Source: an uncultured Gemmatimonadales bacterium (GTDB lineage Bacteria; Gemmatimonadota; Gemmatimonadetes; Gemmatimonadales; GWC2-71-9). From it: a stretch of DNA of 64,000 nt. The stretch is from contig CAVVHO010000005.1 in NCBI GenBank assembly GCA_963748035.1, positions 1,097,080 through 1,161,079 on the forward strand, given 5' to 3'. Below are positions 5,815-63,151 of this stretch, piece after piece. Within the stretch, counting starts at the first letter, position 1, and each line of letters starts with the position of its first letter. The notes beneath the pieces are model-generated. The model ran no database searches. It was given only the letters and a program-made list of their open reading frames with translations, and was not told where the DNA came from. A program made the position numbers and the translations under genes.

Positions 5815-5841
5815 GGTCGGGCGGCGGGTATGATAGGGATC

Positions 5842-5849
5842 GAGGAGGA
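5842..5849 (+). promoter_or_regulatory. Shine-Dalgarno-like GAGGAGGA upstream of the mazG ATG
   Basis: gaggagga ends 3 nt before the ATG at 5853. It lies in the 38-nt divergent alr/mazG spacer. Confidence 0.5.
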
Positions 5850-5852
5850 TAA

Positions 5853-6650
5853 ATGCAAGAGAAATCAGCGCTTGGACGCGCTCAGGTGATGGTCCGAGAT
5901 CTCCGCCAGCGCTGCCCTTGGGACCGGGTCCAGACGCGCGAGACCATCCGTCCGTACCTGCTTGAGGAGGTGTTCGAGCTGGACCATGCCATCGCGCAAG
6001 GTAATCCGGCCGCTATCCGCGAAGAGGTCGCGGATCTTCTGCTTCACTTGGCCTGGCAGCTGGTCTTGGCCGAGGAGGCAGGCGAGTTCACCGCCGAGGA
6101 TGTCGTGCAGGACCTCGAGCGAAAGATGCGTCGGCGACACCCCCATCTCTTCAATCTCGGGCCCGCGGAGCAGTGGGGCCGGCTGAAGCAGCGGGAAAAG
6201 ACCGGCACCGTGCTCGATGGCCTGCCCCCCGCCCTGCCCAGCCTGCTCATGGCCTACCGGCTTCAGGAGCGCGCCGCCGGAGTTGGCTTCGATTGGCCGG
6301 ACACTTCGGGTCCAGCAACCAAGGTGCGCGAGGAACTCGCGGAAGTCGAAGAGTCGCTCGCGTCCGCCCCTCCAGCACCACCCATTGCGGTGACCTCAGG
6401 CGAGCCGGTACCGCCGCATGCCGGAGACGAGGTCACCGATGAAATCGGAGACCTGCTTTTCGCGGTGGTAAACCTGGCTCGCAAGGCCCGAGTGCAACCG
6501 GCCATCGCACTCGATCGGGCCAATCGAAAATTCCAGAGTCGGTTTACGGCGCTGGAGCGCATGGCGAATGCGCGTGGCATCGAGTTGGCGACGGCAGGGC
6601 TGGACGTGCTGGATGGGCTGTGGGAGGAGGTGAAGGCGATTGCTGATTGA
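5853..6650 (+). CDS. mazG: nucleoside triphosphate pyrophosphohydrolase MazG
   Basis: LRQRCPWDRVQTRETIRPYLLEEVFELDHAI..EEVADLLLHL, plus a second MazG repeat EIGDLLFAVVNLAR. Confidence 0.9.
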   Translation: MQEKSALGRAQVMVRDLRQRCPWDRVQTRETIRPYLLEEVFELDHAIAQGNPAAIREEVADLLLHLAWQLVLAEEAGEFTAEDVVQDLERKMRRRHPHLFNLGPAEQWGRLKQREKTGTVLDGLPPALPSLLMAYRLQERAAGVGFDWPDTSGPATKVREELAEVEESLASAPPAPPIAVTSGEPVPPHAGDEVTDEIGDLLFAVVNLARKARVQPAIALDRANRKFQSRFTALERMANARGIELATAGLDVLDGLWEEVKAIAD

Positions 6651-6717
6651 CGATTGCTGATTGCCGATTGGGCAAGGACTCTCAATCGGCAATTAGCAAT
6701 CAGCAATCGCCAATTCA
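6638..6717. repeat. palindromic pair of heptanucleotide arrays: (GATTGNN)x5, 10-12 nt loop, (CAATNNN)x5
   Basis: Left arm 6638-6672: gattgct gattgac gattgct gattgcc gattggg. Right arm 6683-6717: caatcgg caattag caatcag caatcgc caattca. 6657-6670 pairs with 6683-6696 (14 bp including one G.U). The outer units pair as 5-bp blocks. The left arm includes the mazG stop codon. Confidence 0.85.
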
Positions 6718-6735: not shown

Positions 6736-8032
<1,297 letters not shown>

Positions 8033-8056
8033 GCGCGAAGTTGGCGTGGGCGTGGG

Positions 8057-9151
8057 GTGCGACGACGTGGGGCGTTGAGTCTAGCCGGCCTGCTGATGAC
8101 CGTCAACGCGGGGTGCGGAGGATATCGCCCTGTCCCGGAATTCGATACCGGGCAACTGCAGCCGGCGGTCGCGATCCCCGGCACACCCCTCACCCGCGTG
8201 TGGCAGAGCCGCCCGGTCCGTGGCCCGAGCGCTCCGATCGCGCTCGATGGCACGACGGCCTATATCGGTGGCTCTGACCGACGTGTCGTGTCGGTGGACC
8301 TCGCCAGCGGCAAGACCCGCTGGGCCCATCGGGTCTCCGGCCCACTCGTCGGTGGGGTGCTGCGCTCCGGCGATGTCGTCTACAGCGCCACTGACAGGCC
8401 TGATGGGCGGGTGCGTGCCTTCCTCACGGTCAGCGGCAATCAGCTCTGGTCCACTGGCACCGGATACGTGGAAGCACCGATCGCGCTGGCGGCGGGGCGA
8501 TTGATCGTGCTCAATCGTCAGGGGCAGATACTGGCCCTGGATACCTCGACCGGTCGGATTCTATGGCGCCGTCCCCTTGCATCCCAGCGTATCGGCCCAC
8601 TCGTCCTCAGTGATAGCCTCGTGCTGGTCAGCTCGTTCGACAGCCTTTACCTGGTCAGGGTGAGCGACGGCAAAGTCGCGGTCCGGCAACGGGCGCCAGG
8701 GGCGGTCACCGCACCGTGGGTTCGGCTGGGAAGGAATCTGGTCGCGGGGACGGGCGACTCCACGGTGGTCGCGATCGATCCTGACAGCCTGATCCTGCGC
8801 TGGAAGGTACGGCTCGACGGCCCCCTGCTCGCCTCTCCCACCGCCCGCGCCGACACGGTGTACTGCGTCACTCAGCTTGGCTCGCTGTACCGTGTGGTCC
8901 CCGGCCCGACACCGGAACTCACCCGGCTCCGTAACGAGCGCTGGGCGGCGACTGGTGCCCCTGCGGTGTTCGGCCCTTGGGTCCTCGTCGGCAGCTCGAA
9001 CGGGAGCCTCCGCGCCTTCCGCATCTCCGATGGGGACGAGGCGTGGTCGATGCCCTTGGGCCGCCCGCTCGAGCTGGCGCCGCTCATTCTAGGGGACAGC
9101 GGGTTCATTGCCCTCGGCGGCCGGGGTGACCTTCACCGGATGCGCTTGTGA
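8057..9151 (+). CDS. PQQ-like beta-propeller lipoprotein (BamB/YfgL-like)
   Basis: GTG at 8057 gives VRRRGALSLAGLLMTVNAGCGG (lipoprotein-type signal). Repeated propeller blades: SGKTRWAHRV, SGNQLWSTGT, TGRILWRRPL, LILRWKVRL, DGDEAWSMPL. The 5' half of the 715-aa track ORF is antisense to asnS and was discarded. Confidence 0.75.
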   Translation: MRRRGALSLAGLLMTVNAGCGGYRPVPEFDTGQLQPAVAIPGTPLTRVWQSRPVRGPSAPIALDGTTAYIGGSDRRVVSVDLASGKTRWAHRVSGPLVGGVLRSGDVVYSATDRPDGRVRAFLTVSGNQLWSTGTGYVEAPIALAAGRLIVLNRQGQILALDTSTGRILWRRPLASQRIGPLVLSDSLVLVSSFDSLYLVRVSDGKVAVRQRAPGAVTAPWVRLGRNLVAGTGDSTVVAIDPDSLILRWKVRLDGPLLASPTARADTVYCVTQLGSLYRVVPGPTPELTRLRNERWAATGAPAVFGPWVLVGSSNGSLRAFRISDGDEAWSMPLGRPLELAPLILGDSGFIALGGRGDLHRMRL

Positions 9152-9728: not shown

Positions 9729-11810
9729 TCAGCCCGTCCGGAACAGTTCCACGGCCCTCGGATACCGGTTCACGGCGCGTTCTTTGAGACCCAAGTGACG
9801 AGGCCGGGTGAGTAGCGGATCTTCATCGAGGATGCCGAGGGCGACCTCACGTGCCGTGGCGAGCAGATCGGTGTCGTCCGGGAGGCGGGCCAGCCGGAGC
9901 TCGAAATCGCCTGCCTGCCGCTCGCCAATCAGGTCTCCCATCTTGCGTTCCTCGAGATCCAGCTCGGCAATCCGGAACCCATCGTTCGTCGCGGCGAATT
10001 CTCGCAGGCGCGAAGGGATGGGATCATCCGCGAGCAGGATGCAGTAACTCTCGCTCTCCCCCCGTCCGATTCTTCCCCGCAGCTGGTGCAGCTGCGCCAG
10101 CCCGAACCGCTCCGGGTGCTCGATCAGCATCACGCTGGCGTTGGGGACGTCAATGCCGACCTCGATCACCGTGGTTGCGACCAGCACGTGGACCTCGCCG
10201 GCGCGGAAGCGCCGCATCCGTTCATCGCGCTCCGGCGCCTTGAGCTTCCCATGCACCAAACTGACCACCAGGTCCGGCCACAGAGCCTGGAGTTGCTCGG
10301 CCATCGTCGAAGCGGCTCGCAGATCCGCCCGCTCGGACTCTTCGATCACCGGGAGGACCACGTAGGCCTGCCGCCCGGCCACGCACTGTTCATGTACGAA
10401 TGCCAGCGCACGGTCACGCTGCGCCTGGGTGCGCACGCCGGTCTTCACCTCGCCTCGACCCGGTGGGCGCTCCCTGAGCGTCGATACATCGAGATCGCCA
10501 AATCGAGTGAGGGCGAGCGAGCGGGGAATTGGAGTGGCGGTGAGCAGGAGTACGTCGGGGGCATCGCCCTTGGCGACGAGCTGGCTCCGCTGCTCGACAC
10601 CGAAGCGATGCTGTTCATCGATCACCACCAGCCCCAGCCGACTGAACGCGACGCTGTCTTCAAGCAGGGCGTGGGTTCCGACGACCAGTCGGGCCAATCC
10701 GCCGGACAACTTCTTCCGCCGGGCGGCCTTCTCGGTGGCGGTAAGGCGTCCGACCAGGAGTTCGGGCCGGATCTCCAGCGGCTCCAGCAAGCGCCTCAGC
10801 GTAGCCTCGTGCTGTTCGGCTAGCAGCTCGGTGGGCGCCATGAGCGCGGCCTGGTAGTCGTTTTCGAGGGCCAGCAGCATCGCGAAGAGCGCGACCACCG
10901 TCTTACCTGTCCCCACATCCCCCATCAGGAGCCGATGCATTCGTTCCGGGGCGGTCATGTCGGCGGTGATCTCACGGATAGCGCGCTTCTGGTCTCCGGT
11001 GAGGGGCCAAGGCAGCGTTTCGGCGAGGCGCCGGGTGAAGGTATGCCGAACTTCGAACGGCACTCCCCCACGGCGGCGCTTGGCGAGTAGTCGAGCTCTC
11101 GCCAGCATGAGCTGCAGGTCGAGCAATTCATCAAAGGCGAGCCGGCGCCGACCCGCCTCCGCCTCCGCAACCGAGCTGGGGCGGTGAACCGCCCGGAGCG
11201 CGGCAGGCAGTGGCGGGAATCCCAAGGTGCTGGGGACCGACTCCGGCAGCGGGTCGCGGGAGAAGGCGACCATCTGATCGAGATGTTGGTCGATGAGACT
11301 GCGAATCACCTTGTGCGAGAGTCCTTCGGTCGCCCGGTATACCGGCAGAACGCGGCCCGGCGACGGTCCGTCACCCTCGCCACCCGCTTCAGCCAGGACA
11401 ATGAATTCCCGCGGATTCAGTTGCCGTCCATGGTAGAAGCGCACCGGTCCGGCCACGAGTAGCGTCTGCCCGACATCGATGGTTCGGTCGAGAAAGCCCT
11501 GCCCCGGCCAGGCGCATTCAAGCATGCCGCTCTCATCGCGCAGCACGGCGGTGAAGATGCGGAGCCCGCTGCGGGTGGGCATCAGCCGCTTGGAGACGAC
11601 CTTGCCCACGCACGCGACCTCTTCACCCACGCGCGCGCGCGCAACCGGAGTGACGCTGGACGCATCGAGGTAGCGAAAGGGGATATGCCACAGCAGGTCC
11701 TGCGCCGTCCGTACGCCCAGTCGCCCGAAGGCCTCGGCCCTGCGCTCGCCGATGCCTTTGAGGAACTTGACCTGCGTATCGGGGCGAAGCGGGGGCATAC
11801 GTACGACCAT
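9729..11810 (-). CDS. recG: ATP-dependent DNA helicase RecG
   Basis: FLKGIGERRAEAF..wedge domain..MGDVGTGKTVVA (Walker A)..VVIDEQHRFGV (DEQH)..LLLTATPIPRSL..QLHQLRGRIGRG. Confidence 0.93.
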   Translation of the reverse strand: MVVRMPPLRPDTQVKFLKGIGERRAEAFGRLGVRTAQDLLWHIPFRYLDASSVTPVARARVGEEVACVGKVVSKRLMPTRSGLRIFTAVLRDESGMLECAWPGQGFLDRTIDVGQTLLVAGPVRFYHGRQLNPREFIVLAEAGGEGDGPSPGRVLPVYRATEGLSHKVIRSLIDQHLDQMVAFSRDPLPESVPSTLGFPPLPAALRAVHRPSSVAEAEAGRRRLAFDELLDLQLMLARARLLAKRRRGGVPFEVRHTFTRRLAETLPWPLTGDQKRAIREITADMTAPERMHRLLMGDVGTGKTVVALFAMLLALENDYQAALMAPTELLAEQHEATLRRLLEPLEIRPELLVGRLTATEKAARRKKLSGGLARLVVGTHALLEDSVAFSRLGLVVIDEQHRFGVEQRSQLVAKGDAPDVLLLTATPIPRSLALTRFGDLDVSTLRERPPGRGEVKTGVRTQAQRDRALAFVHEQCVAGRQAYVVLPVIEESERADLRAASTMAEQLQALWPDLVVSLVHGKLKAPERDERMRRFRAGEVHVLVATTVIEVGIDVPNASVMLIEHPERFGLAQLHQLRGRIGRGESESYCILLADDPIPSRLREFAATNDGFRIAELDLEERKMGDLIGERQAGDFELRLARLPDDTDLLATAREVALGILDEDPLLTRPRHLGLKERAVNRYPRAVELFRTG

Positions 11811-11835
11811 CAGCCGTCAGCCGTCGGCTGGCGGC
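11811..11835. repeat. short heptad repeat cagccgt-cagccgt-cggctgg with embedded hairpin, directly upstream of the recG start
   Basis: cagccgtcagccgtcggctggcggc. cagccg/cggctg are inverted. The same 15-mer cagccgtcagccgtc recurs at 12819-12833. Confidence 0.8.
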
Positions 11836-11864: not shown

Positions 11865-12791
11865 TCAGGCATCCAACAACCGTGCCGCATAGCCAGGGGC
11901 GTCAAATGGCTGCAGATCGTCCAGCCCCTCACCCAGGCCGAGAAACCTGATGGGCAGCCCAAGTTCCTTGCGAAGCGCCACGACCGCGCCGCCGCGGGCG
12001 CTGCCGTCGAGCTTGGTCACCACGATACCCGTCGGCTGAACCGCGTGAGAGAATAGCTTGCCTTGTTGGATCGCGTTCTGACCCACGGTGCCGTCGAGCA
12101 CCAGGAGGGTCTCGTGCGGAGCCCCAGGGATCTTTCTGGTGATCACCCGAACTACCTTGCGAAGTTCCTCCATCAACCCTTCCTGGGTGTGCAACCGGCC
12201 CGCGGTATCCACAAGCACGGTGTCGGCTCCCCGAGTGGAGGCCGCTTCGATCGCATCGAAGGCGACCGCAGCCGGGTCGCCGCCAGGAGCGCCAGCGACA
12301 CAATGCATCCCGAGCCTCCCCGCCCACACCTGCAGCTGTTGAATGGCCCCAGCGCGATAAGTGTCGGCAGCGGCGAGGAGCACTTGGCGCCCCTCCAGCT
12401 GGAGCCGCCGGGCGACTTTCGCCACGGTGGTCGTCTTGCCGACGCCGTTCACACCCACAAACAGCATGACTGTCACACCCTCCGCCGCGCGCGCGAGCCT
12501 TCCGGGATCGGTTCCCGGCAGATCCAGAATCGCAACCAGCCGCTGTTCCACGGCAAGCTTGAGATCCTCCTCGGTCTTCAGCTTGCCCTTGCGGACCTCA
12601 TCTTCCACCGCTTGAACCAGATCGACGGTGGCTTGGACGCCGAAATCGGCCTCGATGAGGGTGCGCTCGAGGGATTCGAGATCCGCCGCGTTCAAGCGAC
12701 GAGACAACGCGCCCACGTCGGTCAGCGCGACCCGCTTGAGCCGTTGCCAGAGGGAGAGTCTGGGTGCGTCGCCGATGCGGCCGGAAGTCAT
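11865..12791 (-). CDS. ftsY: signal recognition particle receptor FtsY
   Basis: VMLFVGVNGVGKTTTVAKVA..DTAGRLHT..VVTKLDGSARGG. SRP-GTPase G1-G4 motifs. Confidence 0.93.
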   Translation of the reverse strand: MTSGRIGDAPRLSLWQRLKRVALTDVGALSRRLNAADLESLERTLIEADFGVQATVDLVQAVEDEVRKGKLKTEEDLKLAVEQRLVAILDLPGTDPGRLARAAEGVTVMLFVGVNGVGKTTTVAKVARRLQLEGRQVLLAAADTYRAGAIQQLQVWAGRLGMHCVAGAPGGDPAAVAFDAIEAASTRGADTVLVDTAGRLHTQEGLMEELRKVVRVITRKIPGAPHETLLVLDGTVGQNAIQQGKLFSHAVQPTGIVVTKLDGSARGGAVVALRKELGLPIRFLGLGEGLDDLQPFDAPGYAARLLDA

Positions 12792-12811
12792 GGGAGGAAC
12801 CTAGTTGGCGT

Positions 12812-12863
12812 TGGCTGTCAGCCGTCAGCCGTCTGCCGTCGGCCGTCGGCCGTCGGCCGCCGA
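12812..12863. repeat. heptanucleotide tandem array (TCRGCCG)x6-7
   Basis: tggctg tcagccg tcagccg tctgccg tcggccg tcggccg tcggccg ccg, in the 149-nt spacer upstream of ftsY. Confidence 0.9.
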
Positions 12864-12903
12864 ATACAGGGATGCGCGACGCGTCAAGGAGTCCAGTGCT
12901 TTT

Positions 12904-12943
12904 CGCTAATGGCCAATTGCTAACGGCTAACGGCCTTCCGTTA
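12904..12943. repeat. second heptad array (ggccaat tgctaac ggctaac ggccttc), approximately the reverse complement of the first array; ends in hairpin taacgg-cctt-ccgtta over the upstream gene stop
   Basis: Period-7 units at 12911-12938. The reverse complement of tcagccg is cggctga, versus cggctaa here, so minus-strand RNA could pair the two arrays using G.U. 6-bp hairpin 12928-12933 / 12938-12943. Confidence 0.7.
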
Positions 12944-14740
12944 CCGCAGCCCCAGCCTCCTCCGTGCAAGCCATTCGGTCGCAAGGGCCACTATGGCCAG
13001 CCCGAACAGCCAGACCCAGCCCCGCGTGCTCGTCACGCCCGCAAGGGAAACCGCCGGGGCCTCCCGGCTTGCGAGCGTTGCCAGTCTTGGCAGCCATTCA
13101 TCCGACCAGACCTCTACCGCCACAACTCCGCCACCGCCGCCATCCAACGTGTAGCCATAGCGCCCAGCGGGAACACTCACTATCGCGCGACCCGATCCAT
13201 CAAAACGCAGCGTGTCTCGGAGGACAGCTCCCTCACCCGTCAGGGTGATGCCGATTGGCACGGCGGCCCCGGCCCCGGCCCACTCGAACACGACTGGCCG
13301 GCCGTTAGGTACAACGGGGCGTACGGGGCGGGCCCGGGCCTGAGTGCTATCGCTGGCGCCGAGCAACCAGGAGAGCGTGGCGGCCACAAGGGCGCGATAG
13401 GCCTGCTCGCTGGCGCCGCCCCGGAACGCCCAGCGCCATAGTCCGTCCGCGGCCGTCGTCACCCGGCGGCGACCTCCGAGCACATGGCCGGTGAAAACCG
13501 GTCGGTCCGCGCCGCGTCGCGCGAGCTGCGCCGTAAGGCCGACCCAATCCCCTTGCGCCGGCTCGATCGGCGTGATCTCAATGAGCGGCGGGAAGGAGTC
13601 CACCGGCATGCCGAGGAAGGCACTGCCCAGCGGCGAGGCAGCCGGGGCCGTGACGTACCACTCCCCTGCGATCTCGGTCTCGCCACCCTCTCCGCTGGGC
13701 CAGTCCCAGACACCCCGCGCCCGCGACTCCCTGACGAAGTCCCGGGCCGCCCCCTTGATCACCAACACATCCGCACGGCGCGCCGCCTGCGCGATTGCGC
13801 CTGCGCTGACCGGCGCCAGGGTTTCCATCGATCGCCACCGACCCGCTTCAAACCTGGTGTATCCCCGGATGGGAAGGTCCGCCACGTCGCGCAGGGTTCG
13901 GAAGAGGAATCTGCCGTCCCAGTCGCTCGGACTGGCGAGCATCACGATGCCGGGCGTGGGGGTCACGGTGACCAGCCACAGTCGAACATCGTCGCGTGGC
14001 TCAGCGTCGCCGGGGTTGACCAGCGCCACCGTGAAAAGGGCATCCCCCGAGAAACCCACGCTCGGGAACGCTGCGCTGACGAGCGCCTGACCATCCTTGC
14101 CCAGCCGCACCGACCGGCGCGCCAGAACCCGATCCCCGCTTCTCACCTCCAGCCGTGCGCTGTCCGTGGTCGACCCGAACCCGCGAACCTCCAACTCGAG
14201 CCGGATCGTGTCTCCCACCGTAACTCGGGCTGGTCCGGAAACCCTGAGAATGGCGAGGTCGGTTTGAGGCGTCCGAGGAAAGGTGCGAATGCCCACCCGC
14301 CCCAGTGCCTCAGGTGTGAGGTTCGGTTGGTCGGTGATTTCGCCGTCGGTCACGACGATCGCTCGGCGGTCCGATGCCGCGGCCGCGGCCAGTGCGGGAC
14401 CGAGATCGGATCGACCGAACATCGGGAGTGAGTCTGGCGTCACGCCGGCGTCGCCGAAGAGGCGGACCTCTCCCCACGCCCTTGCCGAGTCCAGCGCCTC
14501 ACGCCAGTGCCCGCCGGCCGCTGTCATGCTGAGACTGCCGTCGAGGAGAATCAGCGGGCGTTTCGACTGGGGAGAGGGGGCAGCGCAGGTCAGATTGAGG
14601 ATGAGCAGTCCCAGTGCGGCCCAAGCGATTCCTCGGGCGGACGCCGCCACCCAAGCGCGCGAGCCCAGCCGCTCGAGACGCCAATAGGTGAACCACGCCC
14701 CAGCCGCGGCGAGCACTGCGACAATAAGCAGGCGCATCAT
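12941..14740 (-). CDS. membrane protein with N-terminal double-TM segment, VWA-like DxSxS motif and C-terminal TM anchor (Bat-like)
   Basis: MMRLLIVAVLAAAGAWF..AWAALGLLILNL; LILLDGSLSM (MIDAS-like); C-terminus GWVWLFGLAIVALATEWLARRR. ATGA overlap with hisA. Confidence 0.55.
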   Translation of the reverse strand: MMRLLIVAVLAAAGAWFTYWRLERLGSRAWVAASARGIAWAALGLLILNLTCAAPSPQSKRPLILLDGSLSMTAAGGHWREALDSARAWGEVRLFGDAGVTPDSLPMFGRSDLGPALAAAAASDRRAIVVTDGEITDQPNLTPEALGRVGIRTFPRTPQTDLAILRVSGPARVTVGDTIRLELEVRGFGSTTDSARLEVRSGDRVLARRSVRLGKDGQALVSAAFPSVGFSGDALFTVALVNPGDAEPRDDVRLWLVTVTPTPGIVMLASPSDWDGRFLFRTLRDVADLPIRGYTRFEAGRWRSMETLAPVSAGAIAQAARRADVLVIKGAARDFVRESRARGVWDWPSGEGGETEIAGEWYVTAPAASPLGSAFLGMPVDSFPPLIEITPIEPAQGDWVGLTAQLARRGADRPVFTGHVLGGRRRVTTAADGLWRWAFRGGASEQAYRALVAATLSWLLGASDSTQARARPVRPVVPNGRPVVFEWAGAGAAVPIGITLTGEGAVLRDTLRFDGSGRAIVSVPAGRYGYTLDGGGGGVVAVEVWSDEWLPRLATLASREAPAVSLAGVTSTRGWVWLFGLAIVALATEWLARRRLGLR

Positions 14741-19235: not shown

Positions 19236-19924
19236 GCGGCCTCCTGACGGACCACGATCTGCCCGGCAAAGCGCGCGTCCAACTCTGCCCAGTGGCGTCC
19301 GTTACGCTCGAGGTCCTGCTCGACCGACAGCACCGCCCGAATAACCTCCGCGCCGGCGTCAGGCCGGAACCAGTAGCGTTGTCCATCAACAGCCACGATC
19401 ACGTCGCCCCCACTCCCCCAGGCCGAAACGATGCGGGCATAGTACGTGGCATCAGTCGCCCGAATGCGAGCGAGGAATCCCGCCACGAGCGAATCGGCCT
19501 CACGCATGACCGGCAGATCGGGTCCGGAAACGGTCGGATCAAAGGGGAGCACCTCGCCCCGTTCGCCCACCATCCGTAGCCTGCCGCGCCGCATTACCAG
19601 CGCCACCGGCTCGGTTTCCCGCACACTGATCACAATCGTCCCGGGAAGCCGCCGAGTCACCTCGACCTCTTCGAGCCCACCGATGGAGTCTGTCGCGGCG
19701 CGGAGGGGGCCGAGATCGTCGAACAGACTCTGCCCGTCTTCGATCGGCAGCGCACGGGCGATTGCCTCGGCGCTCATGTTCCTCGTGCCGCGGACGTCGA
19801 TCTTCCTCACCCGGAAGAACTCCATCCCCCGTAACAGCCGCGGCACCGCAACCCACATCAGCACTGCGGCGAGAGCGCCGCCGAGGATCTTCCAGCCGGG
19901 GCGGCTCAGGCGGCTTGAAGCCAC
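19232..19924 (-). CDS. ftsQ: cell division protein FtsQ (POTRA)
   Basis: N-terminal TM WKILGGALAAVLMWVAV, then FRVRKIDVRGTRNMS (POTRA start). Sits between murC and ftsA. Confidence 0.85.
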   Translation of the reverse strand: MASSRLSRPGWKILGGALAAVLMWVAVPRLLRGMEFFRVRKIDVRGTRNMSAEAIARALPIEDGQSLFDDLGPLRAATDSIGGLEEVEVTRRLPGTIVISVRETEPVALVMRRGRLRMVGERGEVLPFDPTVSGPDLPVMREADSLVAGFLARIRATDATYYARIVSAWGSGGDVIVAVDGQRYWFRPDAGAEVIRAVLSVEQDLERNGRHWAELDARFAGQIVVRQEAA

Positions 19925-21297
19925 TGTACCAACTCCCGACCGACACGGGTAACGTCGCCGGCGCCAAGAGTAATCACGACGTCACCGGGCTGGGCAACCT
20001 CGAGAATCCGATCTCGGAGGCGGGCCTTGTCGGCTTCGAATACCACCGTGGCTCCGGCTCGCTCTGCTGCCGCCGCAACAGATCGTCCGCTTACACCGGG
20101 CATCGGCTGTTCCCGGGCGGCGTAGATCTCCGTCACGATGGCGACATCCGCAGCCGCCAGCGCCCGCCCCATGGCCTCACCATGTTCCGCCGTCCGGGAG
20201 AACAGGTGCGGCTGGAACACCGCGATGATGCGTCGTCCCGGGAAGGCCTGTCGGGCCGCGGCGAGTGTGGCGACCAACTCCGAGGGGTGATGCGCATAGT
20301 CATCCACGAAACCAATGCCCCGCACTTCGCCCAGTCTCTCGAAGCGCCGGCCGAGCCCTCGGTACCTCGCGAGTGCCTCGAGAGCGGGCTCCACTGGTCC
20401 CCCGAGAGCGAGGACGACGCCCAGCGCCCCGGTGGCGTTGCGGAGATTGTGGAGTCCCGGCACCACGAGCCGGAGCACGACACGCCGCCGATCCGGCAGG
20501 GTCAGGTTTGCCCGACTCCCATCCGGCCCCAGTTCCACGTCGCTCAATTTCAGATCATTCCCTTCAAATCCGAAGGTCCAGACGTTCTCCGCGAGCCGAG
20601 CCGCCGACTCACCTAGGCGCCGGGCCAGGCGGCGAGCCCCGGGATCATCGGCGCCAAGCAGAGCGTATTCCGCTCGTCCAGCGAATAGCGCGAATGCCTC
20701 CTCCAGCGCGTCGAGGCTGCCATAGCATTCGAGGTGATCGGCTTCGATGTTATTCACCACCGCAACACTCGGCCGGAGAGTAAGAAAGGCCTGGTCGTAT
20801 TCGTCAGCCTCAACCACAAACAGGCGATCGCCGCCGAGTTTGGCATTGCCGCCCCAATCAGCCACCCGGCCGCCGGCGAGCCCGGTGGGATCGAGGCCGG
20901 CGGCCGAAAGAGCCTCGGTCGCCATCACCGTCGTGGTGGACTTGCCGTGGGTGCCGGCGAGCGCGGCCAAGCGCGCGTCGTTGACGAGATCGGCGAGGGC
21001 CTGTTTCCGCGCGACGACCGGCACACCCAAGGCTCGGGCTCGCGCGAGTTCGGGATGATCGGCGGGGACCGCAGCGGTGACAATCAGGGCGCGCGCGCCC
21101 TCGACGTGGGCGGGATCGTGACCGGTGAAGATCTGGGCGCCGAGTGCTGCGACGTCCGCGGCACCGGAAGGATCGGGGTCGCACCCGCTGACTGCCACCC
21201 CTCGGCGGCGCGCCACGAGCGCCAGTGCGCTCATGCCAGCGCCCCCAACGCCCACGAAGTGCACTGGGCGGGGGTCGGCGGGGTCGAACAGCTCCAT
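19906..21297 (-). CDS. murC: UDP-N-acetylmuramate--L-alanine ligase
   Basis: VHFVGVGGAGMSALA..LAGTHGKSTTT..Mur ligase central and C-terminal domains. Confidence 0.95.
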   Translation of the reverse strand: MELFDPADPRPVHFVGVGGAGMSALALVARRRGVAVSGCDPDPSGAADVAALGAQIFTGHDPAHVEGARALIVTAAVPADHPELARARALGVPVVARKQALADLVNDARLAALAGTHGKSTTTVMATEALSAAGLDPTGLAGGRVADWGGNAKLGGDRLFVVEADEYDQAFLTLRPSVAVVNNIEADHLECYGSLDALEEAFALFAGRAEYALLGADDPGARRLARRLGESAARLAENVWTFGFEGNDLKLSDVELGPDGSRANLTLPDRRRVVLRLVVPGLHNLRNATGALGVVLALGGPVEPALEALARYRGLGRRFERLGEVRGIGFVDDYAHHPSELVATLAAARQAFPGRRIIAVFQPHLFSRTAEHGEAMGRALAAADVAIVTEIYAAREQPMPGVSGRSVAAAAERAGATVVFEADKARLRDRILEVAQPGDVVITLGAGDVTRVGRELVQWLQAA

Positions 21298-59443: not shown

Positions 59444-61835
59444 TTATTTGTAGGGGGCGGAGTCGCCCGGCGGCGAATCGCCCCGGGGCTGGACCAGCAT
59501 GGACATGAGCGCCCGTTTGAGCGCCGGGTTGGTGGAGAGCTGGGCTGCTCGGTTGAGATTGTTGATGGCGGCGTCCCGGTCGCTACGGACCTCATAGGCG
59601 TAGGCCAGCTGAGAGAACGGAAGCGACAGGTTGTTTGCCACGCCCGCCGCGGTCGGCTCAAGCTGGTTCGGCTTGTCGCGCAGGAGACCAGCGTACCGGT
59701 ACGTCCCCCAGGCGAGTCGGTCGGTAGTCGGCACGTCTAGAGACACGCCGAGGATCCTGTGATTGTCGACGTCCGCCCGCGTCGTATCCACGGCGCCGGT
59801 CTGCAGCCGCATCACGAGTCCTTGCTGCAGCAGGTAGCGTTCCAGTCCGTAGAACTCGCCACCCGTCGTCATCGACCACGCGATTGGACGGCGCCCGTGA
59901 TTGTCCTGGAGGATGCGGAGCACCGCGAAATCCCGGCTGTAGATCGGTGTCCCCTTCCTCAGCACGTGGCTGATGGGGCCGATCTGCAGGGTAAAGTCCC
60001 GGGGAAGCAGCTGGCCCTCGGCCTGGGCGATCTGCGCGTCGCTGAGGCTATGTGGCTTCCAGGTGGGCAGCACCGCGTGCGCCACCCTTCCAGATGTCAG
60101 GCGCGGCCACCTCGTCGAACGGGCGGATCGGGTTGTCTCGGAGTTGTCGCTTGTACCAGTCGGTCTCCGTCAACGCGAGACAGACCACCAGCACATCCTG
60201 GCGCACCCCGTTCACTTCCTGGGCCCACCACAGTGGGAAGGTGTCGTTGTCACCGTAGGTAAACAGAATGCCGTAAGGCGGTACCGAATTGAGCAGGTCG
60301 TAGGCAAAGTCGGCCGCCAGTGTGGCATCGGCGCCGTGCCGCCTCGTGGCGGCGCTGAAGTTGCCCACGAATGGAGCCAGCGCTACGAGCCCGAGCGGAA
60401 CCGCCGCGAGTCCTGGAGCCAACCGACGCCACCTCTCCATCGCCGAGCGGATCAAGGAGGTCAATCCCATCCCCGCCCACAGGCCCCATACCAGGAAACT
60501 CACCACAAAGAAGTAGTCGCGATCGCGGACTTCATGATCGCTGCCATCGGGGTAGTTGTCGTACGCCATGCTGAAGCCCGGCTTGAAATTCATGTAGACC
60601 ACCAGCCCTAGCCCAGTCACCAGCCACAACAGGAAGAGCAACCACCAACCCGCCCGATCGGCGCGCCGCTGCAGGAACAATCCGCGGATGCCGAGCCAGG
60701 CGAAGAACAGGGTCGGGAGTAGTCGGGCTGGCAGTTTCACGATGGCCAGGTCCATCACGGCCCGGAGGCCGTTGGCCCATTGCCAGTCGAAGTACTGGAC
60801 GTAGTTCGCCAGTTGCAGGGCGATGATCTTGACGCTTCGCCCAGGGTTGTCGAGACCGTGCGCAATGGTGGGGTCGTCAAGCGGTGTCCGGACGGGGTAT
60901 TGCTCCCGCCGGATCACCGCGAGCAGGGCCGTCCAGTTGTCAGGCTGGGCCTCGTTGATGATCGGGTGCTGGCCCGCGCGGATATAGAGGAAGAGGTAGC
61001 TGGTGACTCCGATGGCCGAGACCGCCAACGCCACCAGCGCGAATGGCAGGGCGGATGCGGTGGCCGCGAATGCCGCGGCCGCCAGAAAGCAGGCTCCACC
61101 GAGCACGACGAGTATGGTACTCCCGAGGCCGCACCCGATGAGGAGCGCCCAGCTTCCCGCGACGACCGCCACCTGAGCCCATTCCATGGAGCGTTCGCGC
61201 GGCGTCGCTGCGGGATCCTGGAGCAGGACAGCCGCGAGGAACCCGACCACGGCCGGGCCCACCAGCAAGGCCAGCAGGTGGTTCCCGATGGACAGCCCCG
61301 CCAGATACAGGATGAGGAGCAGGACGTGCGACGCGCGCACCGTCCCACGGTTCGCGCGCCAGACCAGGCAGAGCCAGGTGATCGCCGCTATGGTGAAGGT
61401 GGCGGCGGCGTACACCTCGGTCTCATTGGAGTTCTGCCAATTTGTGAATGTGAATGCCGAGATGAGCACCGCGGCAAGGCTCCCCCCGACCCGCAAGAGC
61501 CGGGCACCCGGTTCCGGCAGGTCGGCGGCGTAGCGCGCGAGGGTCTCATGGACGACGAGAAACAAGAACCCGGCGGCGCAGGCACTCAGCGTCGCGCTGA
61601 GCAGATTGGTCCGCTGAGCGTACTCAGAAAGCGGCACCAATGCACCCCACACATGCCCAATCAGCACGAACAGCGGTGTGCCAGGCGGATGCGGGATACC
61701 CAGGTTCTTCGCCGCGGCGATGAACTCTCCCGCGTCCCAGAATGTCACAGTCGGCGCGAGCGTGATGACGTATCCGGTCAGAACAAGCGCCGTGGCGAGG
61801 ACAGCCAAGAGGTAGGGAGGGCGGCGGGTGGTCAT
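59444..61835 (-). pseudogene. DUF2723-type GT-C fold membrane glycosyltransferase-like protein; +1 frameshift near 60080-60092 as sequenced
   Basis: N-terminal ORF 60048-61835 (..LAPTVTFWDAGEFIAAAKNLGIPHPPGTPLF.., at least 10 TM). C-terminal ORF 59444-60085 continues in the +1 frame (..DIWKG | AHAVLPTWKPHSLSD..). Span 2392 nt = 3n+1. Confidence 0.75.
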
Positions 61836-61843
61836 TCAGGCGG

Positions 61844-61927
61844 TGGGTGTGAGGAGTGAGAAGTAGGAAGTGAGGAGTGAGGAGTGAGGAGTGAGGAGTC
61901 AGAAAGGAAACGTGAAGAGTGGAAAGG
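61844..61927. repeat. heptanucleotide tandem array (GAGGAGT)n, 7 core units + degenerate flanks
   Basis: 61851-61899: gaggagt gagaagt aggaagt gaggagt gaggagt gaggagt gaggagt; then cagaaag gaaacgt gaagagt ggaaagg. Lies in the 143-nt folP/DUF2723 spacer. Confidence 0.92.
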
Positions 61928-61978
61928 GGATCCGCTGCCTTACACCCTCGACGTTCCACCTTACGCGTCTTGAGTCGT

Positions 61979-63151
61979 TCACCGCTCACCTCCGACCGCC
62001 GCAGCGACCGACAGCGCATCCCGGGCCATGGCCACGTTGTGCACTCGAAAGAGCCGTGCGCCCCGTTCGTAGGCAACCACGCAGGCCGCAGCTGTGGCGA
62101 CGTCGCGATCGCCGAGCTCCCGACCCGTCACGCTCCCGAGGAACCGCTTTCGAGACGGTCCGACGAGGATGGGACGTCCCAGGGAACGAAGGGCCGCCAA
62201 GCGGTCGCACAGCAGCAGATTCTGCTCCGCGGTCTTGGAGAATCCGAAACCGGGGTCGAGCACGATGCGCTCTGCCGGCACACCCGCGGTGAGGGCTCGA
62301 TCGAACGCCGCACCCAGCTCCGTCCGCACCCCGGTCACCACATCCGGGTCGTACTCGGCGTCATCCAGCCGTGCCATGGTGCTCACCGTTCCCCGGCTAT
62401 GCATCAGGATCACCCCCGCGCCGGCCTGTGCCGCCGTCCGGGCCATGGCGGGGTCCAGTCGGAATGCGGAGACGTCGTTCACGATCGCGGCTCCGGCCTC
62501 GACCGCCGCGCGCGCGACGCCAGCTTTGACGGTGTCCACTGAGATTGGGACGCCGGGGTGGCGTTTCACCAACGCTTCAAGCACCGGCATGACCCGGGAG
62601 AGTTCGTCGGGCTCCGGGACCGGCTCGCTGCCCGGCCGCGTGGATTCGCCGCCGAGGTCGAGCACGGCCGCCCCGTCCGCCACGAGCCGGTCAGCCTGGG
62701 CCACCGCGGCGTCCGGCGCCAGAAATCGGCCACCATCGCTGAAGGAATCGGGGGTGAGATTCAGAATGCCGAGGATCACGGGGCGATCGAGGCGGATGGA
62801 GCCCCGGGCGGTCACCCAGCTCGCAGGTGGTTCCGGAGTCAGCAGCAGACCGACGGCAGTCGCCACATCCGCGAGTGGCGGTGGCACCGTCCACGGTCGC
62901 GCCAGTGCCCCGAGTCTGGCTTCGGGCCCTCCCACGATGGCCCAGTCCGGACCGGTGATGACTTCAACGCCTAGCTGACCCGCGTAGTGAACCAGTGCGA
63001 GGATGGTGGAATCATCGAGGCCCGATAGCTCGATCGCCAAGGCGGCCATTCCACCAGCCGCGGCGTCGGCTCGGGCCTCGTCCACCCCCCGCGCGCGCAG
63101 CGCTTCGATAACGGCGCGCGGGGAATGGCACGGGAGACCGCGGGCGATCAC
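61979..63151 (-). CDS. folP: dihydropteroate synthase with about 120-aa N-terminal extension of unknown function
   Basis: DHPS core starts near RPVILGILNLTPDSFSDGG..DLGGESTRPG..ISVDT..IVNDVS..LVGPSRK. Preceded by MIARGLPCHSPRAVIEALRARGVDE..LVHYAGQLGVEVITGPDWAIVGG. ATGA overlap with the ftsH stop. Confidence 0.88.
   Translation of the reverse strand: MIARGLPCHSPRAVIEALRARGVDEARADAAAGGMAALAIELSGLDDSTILALVHYAGQLGVEVITGPDWAIVGGPEARLGALARPWTVPPPLADVATAVGLLLTPEPPASWVTARGSIRLDRPVILGILNLTPDSFSDGGRFLAPDAAVAQADRLVADGAAVLDLGGESTRPGSEPVPEPDELSRVMPVLEALVKRHPGVPISVDTVKAGVARAAVEAGAAIVNDVSAFRLDPAMARTAAQAGAGVILMHSRGTVSTMARLDDAEYDPDVVTGVRTELGAAFDRALTAGVPAERIVLDPGFGFSKTAEQNLLLCDRLAALRSLGRPILVGPSRKRFLGSVTGRELGDRDVATAAACVVAYERGARLFRVHNVAMARDALSVAAAVGGER

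Follow-up and report, generated by a model that had tools for sequence, protein, structure and literature searches.

Inverted heptamer arrays upstream of ftsY belong to an abundant class of intergenic hairpins in Gemmatimonadales

The spacer upstream of ftsY in a 64-kb stretch of Gemmatimonadales DNA (the window) contains two facing arrays of 7-nt units that form the arms of an intergenic hairpin. This element is a member of an abundant class of heptamer-stem hairpins in Gemmatimonadales that favors the 3′ ends of genes and varies among strains. On balance, it is probable that the hairpin serves the transcript of the upstream gene at its 3′ end and that ftsY is expressed from a leaderless mRNA whose promoter lies downstream of both arrays.

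Structure of the ftsY upstream spacer

The spacer (12792-12940) is bounded by the TAA of a 599-aa gene and the ATG of ftsY (12789-12791, minus strand; Table 1). The 599-aa gene product is a predicted membrane protein that matched no Pfam or NCBIfam family, and ftsY orthologues in Gemmatimonadales MAGs are 65-81% identical. Gene order at the ftsY locus is the same in sister strain L081. Genes were called with a codon-usage gene caller. The arrays were considered as a coding repeat and rejected as such: their period is not divisible by three, and the caller discarded the open reading frames that cross them.

Table 1. Features of the ftsY upstream spacer and its flanking genes
Feature	Position	Strand	Description or basis
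599-aa gene	12941..14740	-	ORF list and codon-usage gene call; TAA at 12941-12943
Hairpin 5′ arm	12904..12940	-	CGGAAGG CCGTTAG CCGTTAG CAATTGG CCATTAG CG in mRNA sense; about 5 heptamer units
Central region/loop, 44 nt	12860..12903	-	Small local hairpin around GACGCGTCGCG
Hairpin 3′ arm	12804..12859	-	(CGGCCGA)x3 CGGCAGA (CGGCTGA)x2 CAGCCAA CGCCAAC in mRNA sense; 8 heptamer units
-10-like hexamer TAGGTT	12798..12803	-	6 nt before ftsY ATG; candidate promoter element, from orthologue conservation
CCTCCC, between -10-like box and start codon	12792..12797	-	Sequence
ftsY, signal recognition particle receptor, 308 aa	11865..12791	-	Pfam SRP54_N + SRP54
Small second array (GACGGCT)x2	11812..11825	-	ftsY-recG spacer, just upstream of recG start (11810); TRF 11810-11825

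The two facing heptamer arrays are as the earlier note described them. Read on the plus strand, the main array consists of GTTGGCG TTGGCTG TCAGCCG TCAGCCG TCTGCCG TCGGCCG TCGGCCG TCGGCCG, and TRF reports it at 12809-12859 with period 7, 7.3 copies, 86% matches, and a score of 67. Its partner was detected by TRF only at 12919-12934 (GCTAACG, period 7, 2.3 perfect copies); by eye it extends to 4-5 degenerate units across the whole 5′ arm, which starts at the base right after the stop codon of the 599-aa gene. Direct repeat family D1 lies in the 3′ arm, as do palindromes I1, I4, and I5. The 5′ arm contributes to the inverted-repeat pairs I2, I3, I6, and I8 and is paired in the minimum free energy (MFE) fold. 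The units GACGGCT and CGGCCGA lack tracts of three or more G.

Arm pairing and fold of the window copy

Complementarity between the arms reaches 82% over 17 nt and 75% over 24 nt. The best two-unit reverse-complement match has 3 mismatches in 14 positions, compared with 4 in both the reversed and the complement-only controls. On the minus strand, pairing includes one G.U pair per unit (GCCGUUA with UGACGGC), just as had been claimed for unit-for-unit pairing of the arrays; the complementarity is nevertheless modest, and the plus strand permits another pairing register.

The spacer folds at -60.7 kcal/mol on the sense strand with a z-score of -1.87, which is marginal, as 9 of 200 shuffled sequences fold equally well; the antisense strand has a z-score of -1.39. 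In the MFE fold, the hairpin stops approximately 45 nt before the ATG and leaves the start region unsequestered. The window copy is a partly decayed hairpin. Its long stem is weakened because the three inner units of the 3′ arm have drifted to CGGCCGA, which is self-complementary (CGGCCG) and has lost its complementarity to the 5′ arm.

After the stem the sequence reads ...CAGCCAACGCCAACUAGGUU, with no U run 3′ of the 3′ arm, and a consensus scan of the spacer detected neither an intrinsic terminator nor a canonical sigma-70 promoter. It thus does not qualify as a canonical intrinsic terminator. An Rfam gathering scan of the 64-kb window returned two tRNAs only, and a permissive scan (E ≤ 1) of 12700-13050 returned a chance match only.

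Variation among sister strains and orthologous spacers

Strains with 96-99% identical ftsY have spacers of 143, 149, 156, or 123 nt, and the number and type of their units differ. The first three lengths occur among strains with 99% identical ftsY and amount to about one unit of length variation, although the 6-nt difference in L081, which is perhaps a long-read assembly, could include assembly error. The copy-number polymorphism that had been anticipated is thus present. The variable units lie at least 30 nt upstream of the -10-like box.

The arms change together. L166 carries compensating changes in both arms, TCCGCCR (TCCGCCG) and CGGCGGA, and its hairpin folds significantly, with a z-score of -4.25. 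The hairpin of L167 is also significant, with a z-score of -3.07 on the sense strand versus -1.52 on the antisense strand. L081 and L167 share the conserved loop, whereas the loop of L166 cannot be aligned with it despite 95.8% nucleotide identity in ftsY. Alignment of the 5′ arm and loop fails between strains with 89.6% identity at the third codon positions of ftsY.

Relatives at 90% identity (L162-L164) have no arrays in the ftsY spacer, and many orthologous ftsY spacers measure just 18-38 nt and have no hairpin, so the element is dispensable at this position. Paired heptamer arrays with wholly different units occupy the orthologous spacers of L001, L002, L024, and L025. The earlier note had staked its repeat-on-repeat hairpin on folding better than shuffled sequence and on recurrence in related genomes. 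By these measures the window copy is equivocal, with a marginal fold and array-less relatives in L162-L164; for the element overall, the significant folds of L166 and L167, the compensated arms of L166, and the partnered arrays of the class described below bear the hairpin out.

The array class in Gemmatimonadales

To our knowledge, the excess of heptamers in intergenic DNA has no accepted explanation. It has been known in bacteria since 2007. The class was surveyed in the window and 28 related loci, which together comprise 530 kb with 37 kb of intergenic DNA, by collecting arrays of at least 2.8 copies. Period 7 was represented by 38 non-coding and 9 coding arrays, and period 8 by 21 and 19; the corresponding counts were 3 and 12 for period 5, 3 and 22 for period 6, and 1 and 19 for period 9. 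The 37 kb of intergenic DNA thus contains 38 period-7 arrays versus 0-3 for periods 5, 6, 9, and 10, and a control of 1 Mb from other phyla contained 9 period-7 arrays. Period-7 arrays in the related loci are far above chance, and periods 7 and 8 together dominate the intergenic tandem arrays.

Most of these arrays come in inverted pairs. A partner was scored wherever two units recurred in reverse complement no more than 250 nt away with 2 mismatches or fewer. By this definition 37 of 55 non-coding arrays have a reverse-complement partner, compared with 0 in the reversed control and 1 in the complement-only control. The units vary from locus to locus (GACGGCT, CGATTGC, GTGAGGA, GCGACAG, and others), and most lack G-tracts. 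The stems are repetitive and 20-35 bp long, with loops of up to 90 nt. A clean example within the window lies at 6637-6708 between the convergent genes mazG and asnS and has a z-score of -9.8.

The class is biased toward the 3′ ends of genes. Convergent spacers carry arrays in 13 of 36 cases and tandem spacers in 19 of 132, whereas only 1 of 36 divergent spacers does (Fisher p = 0.012; binomial p = 8e-5, with divergent spacers making up 31% of intergenic DNA). Where a stop codon is the nearest gene boundary, 25 of 35 arrays overlap it or begin at most 6 nt from it. Fold z-scores follow the same pattern: convergent spacers have a median of -2.4, 25% of tandem spacers fall below -3, and none of 15 divergent spacers falls below -2. 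Such arrays are found in 17 of the 31 spacers with z-scores below -3.

Period, inverted pairing, and stop-codon position are all kept while the unit changes by locus and strain, which argues that the period and the stem are what matter, rather than the sequence. Conservation of a period that is independent of sequence points to slippage or template switching on the one hand, or on the other to a factor that gauges lengths of about 7 nt. Selection on the sense-strand RNA was considered for the class but is not claimed: the 19 elements in tandem context show no asymmetry, with summed folding energies of -953 kcal/mol (sense) versus -1004 kcal/mol (antisense) and 60 versus 76 G.U pairs. The absence of strand asymmetry gives no support to RNA-only selection and is expected from a DNA-level process.

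A proposed role at gene 3′ ends and the neutral alternative

In the favored reading, the 5′ arm begins at the preceding stop codon, the 3′ arm runs up to the probable promoter of the next gene, and the hairpin would belong to the 3′ end of the 599-aa gene's transcript. There it may act as a terminator without a U-tract or as a REP-like barrier against 3′-exonucleases, and it would keep the upstream transcript apart from the ftsY promoter. The arms may grow, shrink, and homogenize through replication slippage of 7-nt units, with their complementarity maintained through selection on the stem or through template switching between the arms. Naturally occurring alleles with 6, 7, or 8 units, or with compensated arms, form a series in which termination, mRNA stability, and slippage could be studied.

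Alternatively, the arrays could be a neutral by-product of mutation. The replication machinery of this lineage would slip preferentially on 7-8 nt units, palindromes such as old terminator stems would seed arrays, and template switching would copy changes between the arms, so that functionless arrays persist where they are harmless, at gene 3′ ends. This explanation is unlikely, but several observations are in keeping with it. Polymerase slippage has already been proposed for the heptamer excess (Mrazek 2007, cited in PMC4692102). Neither folding nor G.U pairs distinguish the strands; turnover is extreme, as the unalignable 5′ arm and loop illustrate; and the element is missing from 90%-identity relatives and many orthologues. 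The units are locus-specific, and therefore no common motif could be a binding site, and the same unit recurs in adjacent spacers, as local spread predicts.

However, paired arrays of unrelated units occupy the ftsY spacer in at least five lineages, and the arms remain complementary despite unit changes, which looks like stem maintenance. The strong depletion from divergent spacers and the tendency to begin at a stop codon are more specific than persistence wherever harmless, and the inverted-array architecture is found in half of the 3′ spacers with strong structure.

Possible relationship to GxxExxY gene cassettes

Two further readings treat the arrays as traces of mobile DNA. In the broader one, inverted arrays would be the ends of an undescribed hairpin cassette that propagates itself and targets the 3′ ends of genes. 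Its autonomous members would bear a small GxxExxY PD-(D/E)XK nuclease gene between inverted arrays of 3 x 8-9 nt, and the heptamer hairpins would be non-autonomous relatives. This proposal is improbable. If it held, the arms would be recognized by period and structure rather than by sequence, and the replacement of the spacer at 96% identity, together with the reuse of units nearby, would represent mobility beyond slippage. Same-unit arrays do recur in neighboring spacers within the 3 kb covered by a search for cargo genes; the same search detected no heptamer pair flanking a cargo gene in any locus examined, the 8-mer GxxExxY cases being the only array-flanked genes that it returned.

The narrower reading is that the ftsY pair is a decayed or non-autonomous cassette, specifically a miniature or footprint of cassettes that encode GxxExxY (PD-(D/E)XK) nucleases, and it is quite improbable. 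Inverted 8-mer arrays flank every GxxExxY gene in the related loci, and in L017 and L018 such genes sit in exactly this spacer, with the 599-aa gene on one side and ftsY on the other. L010 retains an internally deleted GxxExxY copy with its arrays still flanking, and L004 has just 7 nt where L007 and L008 have an occupied site. Arrays lie on both sides in 41 of 80 metagenomic GxxExxY loci, and in 32 of these 41 the arrays are reverse complements. Gene-less hairpins with GxxExxY-type array units also occur.

The arrays of these cassettes are nevertheless distinct from those at ftsY. Cassette arrays repeat the conserved unit C[AG]C[ACG]GAG[AG] approximately 3 times with a period of 8-9 and flank a PDDEXK_3 gene, whereas the ftsY arrays repeat an unrelated unit (GACGGCN) up to 8 times with a period of 7 and enclose no gene. 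A tblastn search for a GxxExxY remnant was negative in the spacer and in the whole window at E values up to 10, and no gene is flanked by a heptamer pair within 3 kb in any locus. Among the matches listed, papers that match "GxxExxY" concern other subjects, judging by title and abstract.

The start of ftsY

The mRNA-sense sequence that precedes the ftsY ATG is GGTTCCTCCC. In 21 of 33 ftsY orthologues and strains, the last base of a TANNNT box lies 4-9 nt upstream of the start codon, versus a background of 1%. The box is TAGGTT here, TAGATT in many orthologues, and TAAATT or TACATT elsewhere, and it is also present in relatives whose entire spacer is 18-38 nt. No -35 element common to the strains could be identified in alignment A3. 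TANNNT boxes are expected of leaderless genes, and about one tenth of the genes behind spacers of at least 25 nt in this group have one.

Conservation of the -10-like box this close to the start argues that the ftsY mRNA is probably leaderless, with its transcript most likely starting past both arrays, at the ATG or immediately beside it. The arrays would therefore lie upstream of the ftsY promoter and within the 3′ region of the gene before it. In view of such boxes, repeat-rich spacers of this type should not be annotated as 5′ leaders. An upstream extension of the ftsY reading frame was also considered and is blocked by an in-frame TAG at -12.

The earlier note read the sequence before the ATG as anti-Shine-Dalgarno-like. 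The CTCCC is there and a Shine-Dalgarno sequence is lacking, but the segment is better described as the stretch between the -10-like box and the start, and the CCTCCC is probably promoter spacer that is either untranscribed or transcribed only in its last bases. Shine-Dalgarno sequences are used by about 22% of Gemmatimonadetes genes (PMC10783764) and were found in 41 of 180 genes in the present census. Because a minority of genes here use them, an ftsY without one is unremarkable.

The same note placed the arrays in a roughly 150-nt 5′ leader of ftsY. In that model, the arrays would tune translation or stability in the leader or in a read-through transcript, and copy number would vary expression. 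This is very improbable: read-through from the upstream gene is possible, strains do differ in copy number, and the sense strand has its G.U pairs and the better fold in L167, yet the -10-like box is conserved even before 18-38 nt spacers, the hairpin ends well short of a free start region, Rfam has no match, and the closest species-level relatives lack the element although ftsY is an essential housekeeping gene. Promoter geometry is unaffected by copy number because the variable units sit upstream of the promoter core, and for this reason, and given that the gene is essential, the suggested phase-variable expression of ftsY is unlikely.

Comparison with known repeat systems

Among known systems, the Gemmatimonadales hairpins are closest to the paired GGGAATC heptamer arrays found in Xanthomonas, of which they are a variant. 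The arrays of Xanthomonas campestris and X. axonopodis are, like those described here, intergenic tandem arrays of 7-nt units (PMC4692102). In 70-75 cases, two nearby arrays have a convergent (inverted) orientation, with one arm at most 50 bp from a stop codon or overlapping it and the other just upstream of the next open reading frame (PMC4692102). They are enriched between co-oriented and convergent open reading frames and under-represented in coding DNA and divergent spacers (PMC4692102). Their length and sequence are highly variable between close relatives, and their function is unknown (Rehm et al. 2015, PMC4692102).

The window element shares with the Xanthomonas type a non-coding 7-nt array of at least 3 copies, an inverted partner, and the bias in gene context. 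Xanthomonas uses a single G-rich unit genome-wide, which has been read as G-quadruplex-forming, whereas the units in Gemmatimonadota are locus-specific. Units differ at nearly every locus, and thus the conserved traits are the 7-nt period and arm complementarity rather than sequence.

Cyanobacterial STRR and the TAACTGA repeats of Beggiatoaceae are also intergenic tandem heptamers, often near start or stop codons, with variable copy number (PMC4679880), and heptanucleotide repeats of Calothrix are cited in PMC4692102. In Beggiatoa, 169 direct sets were reported versus one inverted set (PMC4679880). These systems consist of a few units at 100-250 sites per genome in mostly direct arrangement, whereas the arrays described here are mostly inverted pairs and locus-specific. 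Literature searches that combined Gemmatimonadetes with heptanucleotide or tandem repeats returned nothing.

REP/BIME elements offer the closest functional analogy. These enterobacterial hairpins occur at 3′ ends and between cistrons, are absent from divergent promoter regions, and have been proposed to protect mRNA 3′ ends and to act in termination. REPs form one conserved family of approximately 35 nt that is spread by RAYT transposases, and their stems contain no tandem repeats. Unlike REP/BIME, GACGGCT occurs at only two sites within the 64-kb window.

Intrinsic terminators resemble the class in having a G+C-rich hairpin directly after a stop codon, including between convergent genes, but the class differs in its missing U-tract, its long repetitive stems, and the size of its loops. 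Contingency loci of Haemophilus and Neisseria likewise have tandem repeats near promoters whose copy number is polymorphic among strains. Unlike those loci, the ftsY array has a 7-nt unit instead of 1-5 nt, has an inverted partner, and precedes an essential housekeeping gene. In addition, it lies outside both the -35/-10 spacer and the open reading frame, where a change in unit number leaves frame and spacing intact.

A second array in the ftsY-recG spacer

When a two-unit probe of GACGGCT was used, only the two flanks of ftsY matched within the 64-kb window. A dispersed repeat family was rejected for this unit, given its confinement to these sites. The match on the recG side is the small second array of Table 1. 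In L001 and L002, the same ftsY-recG position is occupied by full paired arrays with the units TCAGCC and CTGACNG.

Anatomy of the ftsY spacer

The two facing 7-nt repeat arrays occupy the spacer 5' of ftsY in a minus-strand series of genes comprising hisA, a 599-aa membrane protein gene, ftsY, and recG (Table). The window source is a Gemmatimonadales bacterium; the nearest 28 FtsY loci in a collection of species-representative genomes are all Gemmatimonadota MAGs (65-81% amino acid identity). On the sense strand, the strand of the ftsY mRNA, the spacer opens after the TAA stop codon of the 599-aa gene. About five heptamers stand immediately 3' of this codon (CGGAAGG CCGTTAG CCGTTAG CAATTGG CCATTAG), followed by a 44-nt region between the arrays and a second array of eight units, (CGGCCGA)x3 CGGCAGA (CGGCTGA)x2 CAGCCAA CGCCAAC. 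Next come, in order, TAGGTT, CCTCCC, and the ftsY ATG. The earlier note described the arrays correctly, because TRF detects the long one as well as the perfect core of its shorter counterpart. Complementarity between them is modest (75-82% across 17-24 nt), and the fold of the window spacer marginally beats dinucleotide shuffles, with z (fold energy relative to shuffled sequences) of -1.87 on the sense and -1.39 on the antisense strand. Within a wider hairpin class, the window copy counts as weak and partly decayed.

Features of the window and of related loci, in the coordinates of each
Locus	Feature	Position	Strand	Remarks
Window	599-aa membrane protein gene	12941-14740	-	without family match
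Window	spacer between 599-aa gene and ftsY	12792-12940		149 nt
Window	long array	12809-12859		period 7, 7.3 copies (TRF)
Window	short array, perfect core	12919-12934		TRF
Window	ftsY	11865-12791	-
Window	recG	9729-11810	-
Window	(GACGGCT)x2 mini-array	11812-11825		directly 5' of recG start; unit and orientation as in ftsY-spacer array
Window	repeat-on-repeat hairpin	6637-6708		between convergent mazG and asnS; CGATTGC/TGATTGA x5, 12-nt loop, CAATCNN x5
Window	(GTGAGGA)x7	61849-61899		just 5' of TMEM260-like gene start (60048-61835, -)
L007	GxxExxY copy	13107-13535
L008	GxxExxY copy	7890-8210		truncated
L017	GxxExxY copy	5817-6402
L018	GxxExxY copy	7530-8150
L010	internally deleted GxxExxY gene	13005-13282		arrays kept

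Variation among close strains

Contigs of strains of the same species and of relatives at about 90% FtsY identity were recovered by exact-protein look-ups. In two strain loci (L081 and L167), ftsY is 99% identical to that of the window at the nucleotide level, and the spacer measures 143 and 156 nt, respectively, about one unit shorter and longer than in the window. L167 carries (CGGCTGA)x4 at the place of the window's (CGGCCGA)x3. In a third locus (L166), ftsY is 95.8% identical (third codon positions 89.6%) and the central loop is not alignable any more. It has (CGGCGGA)n as the 3' arm, exactly complemented by (TCCGCCR)n in the 5' arm, so both arms have changed together. The hairpin is significant in L167 (z -3.07, 1/200 shuffles equally good) and in L166 (z -4.25, 0/200). 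Three relatives at about 90% amino acid identity (L162-L164) have a 38-nt spacer without arrays. Based on the strain folds, the turnover of units, and these array-free loci, the ftsY-spacer element is a real hairpin that is hypervariable and dispensable. The hairpin of paired arrays put forward in the earlier note therefore stands, as does copy-number polymorphism.

The L081 array differs from that of the window by 6 nt rather than 7 (columns 150-156 of A1, an alignment of L081 with the window), and the ftsY-recG spacer contains a 1-nt indel (column 1150). The 'contig_N' name of L081 suggests a long-read assembly, and part of these differences may be assembly error rather than biology.

A class of hairpins near stop codons

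The class census comprised the window and 28 related loci (530 kb, 37 kb intergenic), with genes from a codon-usage model (93% coding) and arrays of at least 2.8 copies. Non-coding DNA contains 38 arrays of period 7 and 21 of period 8, with 0-3 each for periods 5, 6, 9, and 10; coding-DNA arrays are dominated by multiples of three. Control loci from other phyla (1 Mb) contain 9 period-7 arrays. A reverse-complement partner, defined as a two-unit match that has no more than 2 mismatches and lies within 250 nt, is present for 37/55 non-coding period-7/8 arrays, against 0 in the reversed and 1 in the complement-only control.

Arrays are found in 13/36 convergent, 19/132 tandem, and 1/36 divergent spacers, and divergent spacers make up 31% of intergenic DNA (context bias, Fisher p = 0.012, binomial p = 8e-5). 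Among 35 arrays nearest to a stop codon, 25 overlap it or start no more than 6 nt away. Strong structure is general in 3' spacers and not in divergent spacers, and the tandem-array type accounts for about half of the strongly structured spacers. The repeat unit differs locus by locus: ftsY spacers of related loci carry GGCAGGT/GCCACCT (L001), TAGGCGA/CGCCTAC (L002), GTGAGGC/CTTACCT (L024), and GCGACAG/CGCCTGT (L025), and many other orthologues have no arrays there.

Coding 8-mer arrays occur in a mazG linker (L026, 16470-16511 and 16804-16861) and at the C-terminus of an FtsW-like protein (L027, 347-503; L003, 262-374), with the inverted partner in the adjacent spacer or the 5' end of the next gene. 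Array expansion evidently reaches ORF ends too. L026 also contains long inverted repeats with a AGGATTTGGGGATT / AATCCCCAAATCCT motif (9780-9952 and 20314-20528) that enclose 100-130 nt of unrelated sequence, one of them in the spacer before ftsY; these look like a dispersed MITE-like element.

The closest described system is the GGGAATC repeats of Xanthomonas, heptamer arrays that form 70-75 inverted pairs in each genome, are more frequent than expected between ORFs that are co-oriented or convergent and depleted between divergent ones, adjoin stop codons, and vary among close relatives (PMC4692102). An over-representation of heptamers among bacterial SSRs, observed in 2007, and the idea of polymerase slippage are cited in the same article. 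Unlike the Xanthomonas repeats, the Gemmatimonadales elements have locus-specific units, mostly without G-tracts, so that G-quadruplexes drop out as an explanation and what stays conserved is the period and the stem. Cyanobacterial STRRs and Beggiatoaceae TAACTGA repeats, although related, consist mainly of a few reused units in direct arrays. REP/BIME elements are the closest functional analogy, although the ftsY-spacer element is not a member. The weight of the finding lies mainly in this class-level pattern and in the natural allelic series on offer.

A probable ftsY promoter

A TANNNT hexamer ends 4-9 nt 5' of the start codon in 21/33 ftsY orthologues and strains; the rate at random positions is 1%. 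It is mostly TAGATT, with TAGGTT in the window (12798-12803); sister strains have TAAATT or TACATT. The hexamer is present even where the entire spacer is 18-38 nt. Among 180 census genes of the related loci with a spacer of at least 25 nt, 21 have TANNNT at this distance (peak 6-7 nt) and 41 have a Shine-Dalgarno sequence; a published survey gives about 22% Shine-Dalgarno use for this class (PMC10783764). Judged from sequence position, the hexamer has the geometry of a -10 box for a leaderless mRNA, which suggests that leaderless mRNAs are common in Gemmatimonadales, with a -10 consensus near TAGATT. Both arrays would then lie 5' of the predicted ftsY transcription start and not in the 5' leader, where the earlier note had placed them; read-through from the upstream gene would place them within intercistronic RNA. 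CTCCC, previously described as anti-SD-like, is better read as promoter spacer given this geometry and the low Shine-Dalgarno use, and the suggested phase variation of ftsY is not upheld.

In the window, the starts of the 19906-21297 and 58729-59415 genes also have a TAGATT-like hexamer. The ftsY starts considered outside the window are those of L001-L028, L081, and L163-L169.

Possible function

A functional hairpin at the 3' end of the upstream gene's transcript has somewhat better than even chances of being correct. It would form part of that 3' end, act as a U-tract-less terminator or a REP-like barrier against 3' exonucleases, and insulate the upstream transcript from the ftsY promoter, while its arms would evolve through slippage of 7-nt units. 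A function is favoured by the location of arrays at stop codons, by their bias to convergent and tandem spacers, by a stem that has persisted at one locus despite complete sequence turnover, and by the compensated arms of L166. Against it count the lack of a U-tract, the dispensability of the element in many relatives, and the finding of no excess sense-strand folding or sense-strand G.U pairs across 19 members. In the main rival reading, which is clearly less probable, slippage and template switching at intergenic palindromes would have given rise to the arrays as neutral by-products.

Putative GxxExxY cassettes

Small GxxExxY genes (TIGR04256, Pfam PDDEXK_3) are present in related loci. All intact copies (L007, L017, and L018) lie between inverted 8-mer arrays, as does the L008 copy, which is not called as a gene and spans query residues 1-90 only; examples of the array pairs are CACAGAGG/CCTCTGTG, CCGCCGAG/CTCGGCGG, and CGCAGAGA/TCTCTGCG. 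The L017 and L018 copies sit in the very spacer that separates the 599-aa gene from ftsY. L027 has one array left, and L004 has an empty site of 7 nt at the position occupied in L007 and L008. Gene-less hairpins with the same unit type are found at L026 13160-13300, L026 7865-7982, and L018 11213-11468.

Searching metagenomes with an alignment built from these GxxExxY proteins yielded 80 loci. Among the 69 loci whose flanks each span at least 200 nt, tandem arrays stand on both sides of the gene in 37 and on one side in 15, nearly always with period 8 or 9 and about 3 copies. A looser count gives arrays on both sides in 41/80 loci, and 32 of these 41 pairs are reverse complements. Upstream of the gene the unit is C[AG]C[ACG]GAG[AG], and downstream it is the reverse complement; read on the coding strand, the upstream array is rich in purines in 88% of cases. 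GxxExxY with its inverted arrays looks like a cassette or mobile-element architecture. It appears to be undescribed: of three literature matches for 'GxxExxY', the two listed concern other subjects by title and abstract.

These loci show that a gene and inverted tandem arrays around it can come in as one unit, but descent of the ftsY arrays from a decayed cassette of this type is improbable and is kept as a minor rival, because they differ from GxxExxY arrays in period, copy number, and unit and hold no detectable gene remnant.

Other arrays in the window

The cleanest class example in the window is the near-perfect hairpin between mazG and asnS (-56 kcal/mol, z -9.8), whose first array contains the stop codon of mazG (5886-6650, +); asnS, on the minus strand, has its lower coordinate at 6736. 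Pairing of the (GTGAGGA)x7 array is weak, with 4/14 mismatches in the best reverse-complement match. A degenerate GTGAGCG/GTGAACG partner at about 61940-61990 overlaps the TGA stop codon of a pterin-binding gene (61979-63151, -).

One unit can recur in neighbouring spacers, as with the arrays either side of ftsY in the window or those of a pair of L026 spacers. The GACGGCT unit seems to be shared or moved between the ftsY flanks. In L001 and L002, the ftsY-recG spacer has full paired arrays, TCAGCC(T/G) / CTGACNG.

The asparagine-tRNA ligase gene (6736-8032, -) is apparently split into two overlapping ORFs, one of 343 aa (7001-8032) and one of 91 aa (6736-7011) that matches the last ~90 AsnS residues. 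A frameshift, an assembly error of a single base, or a genuine disruption could account for the split.
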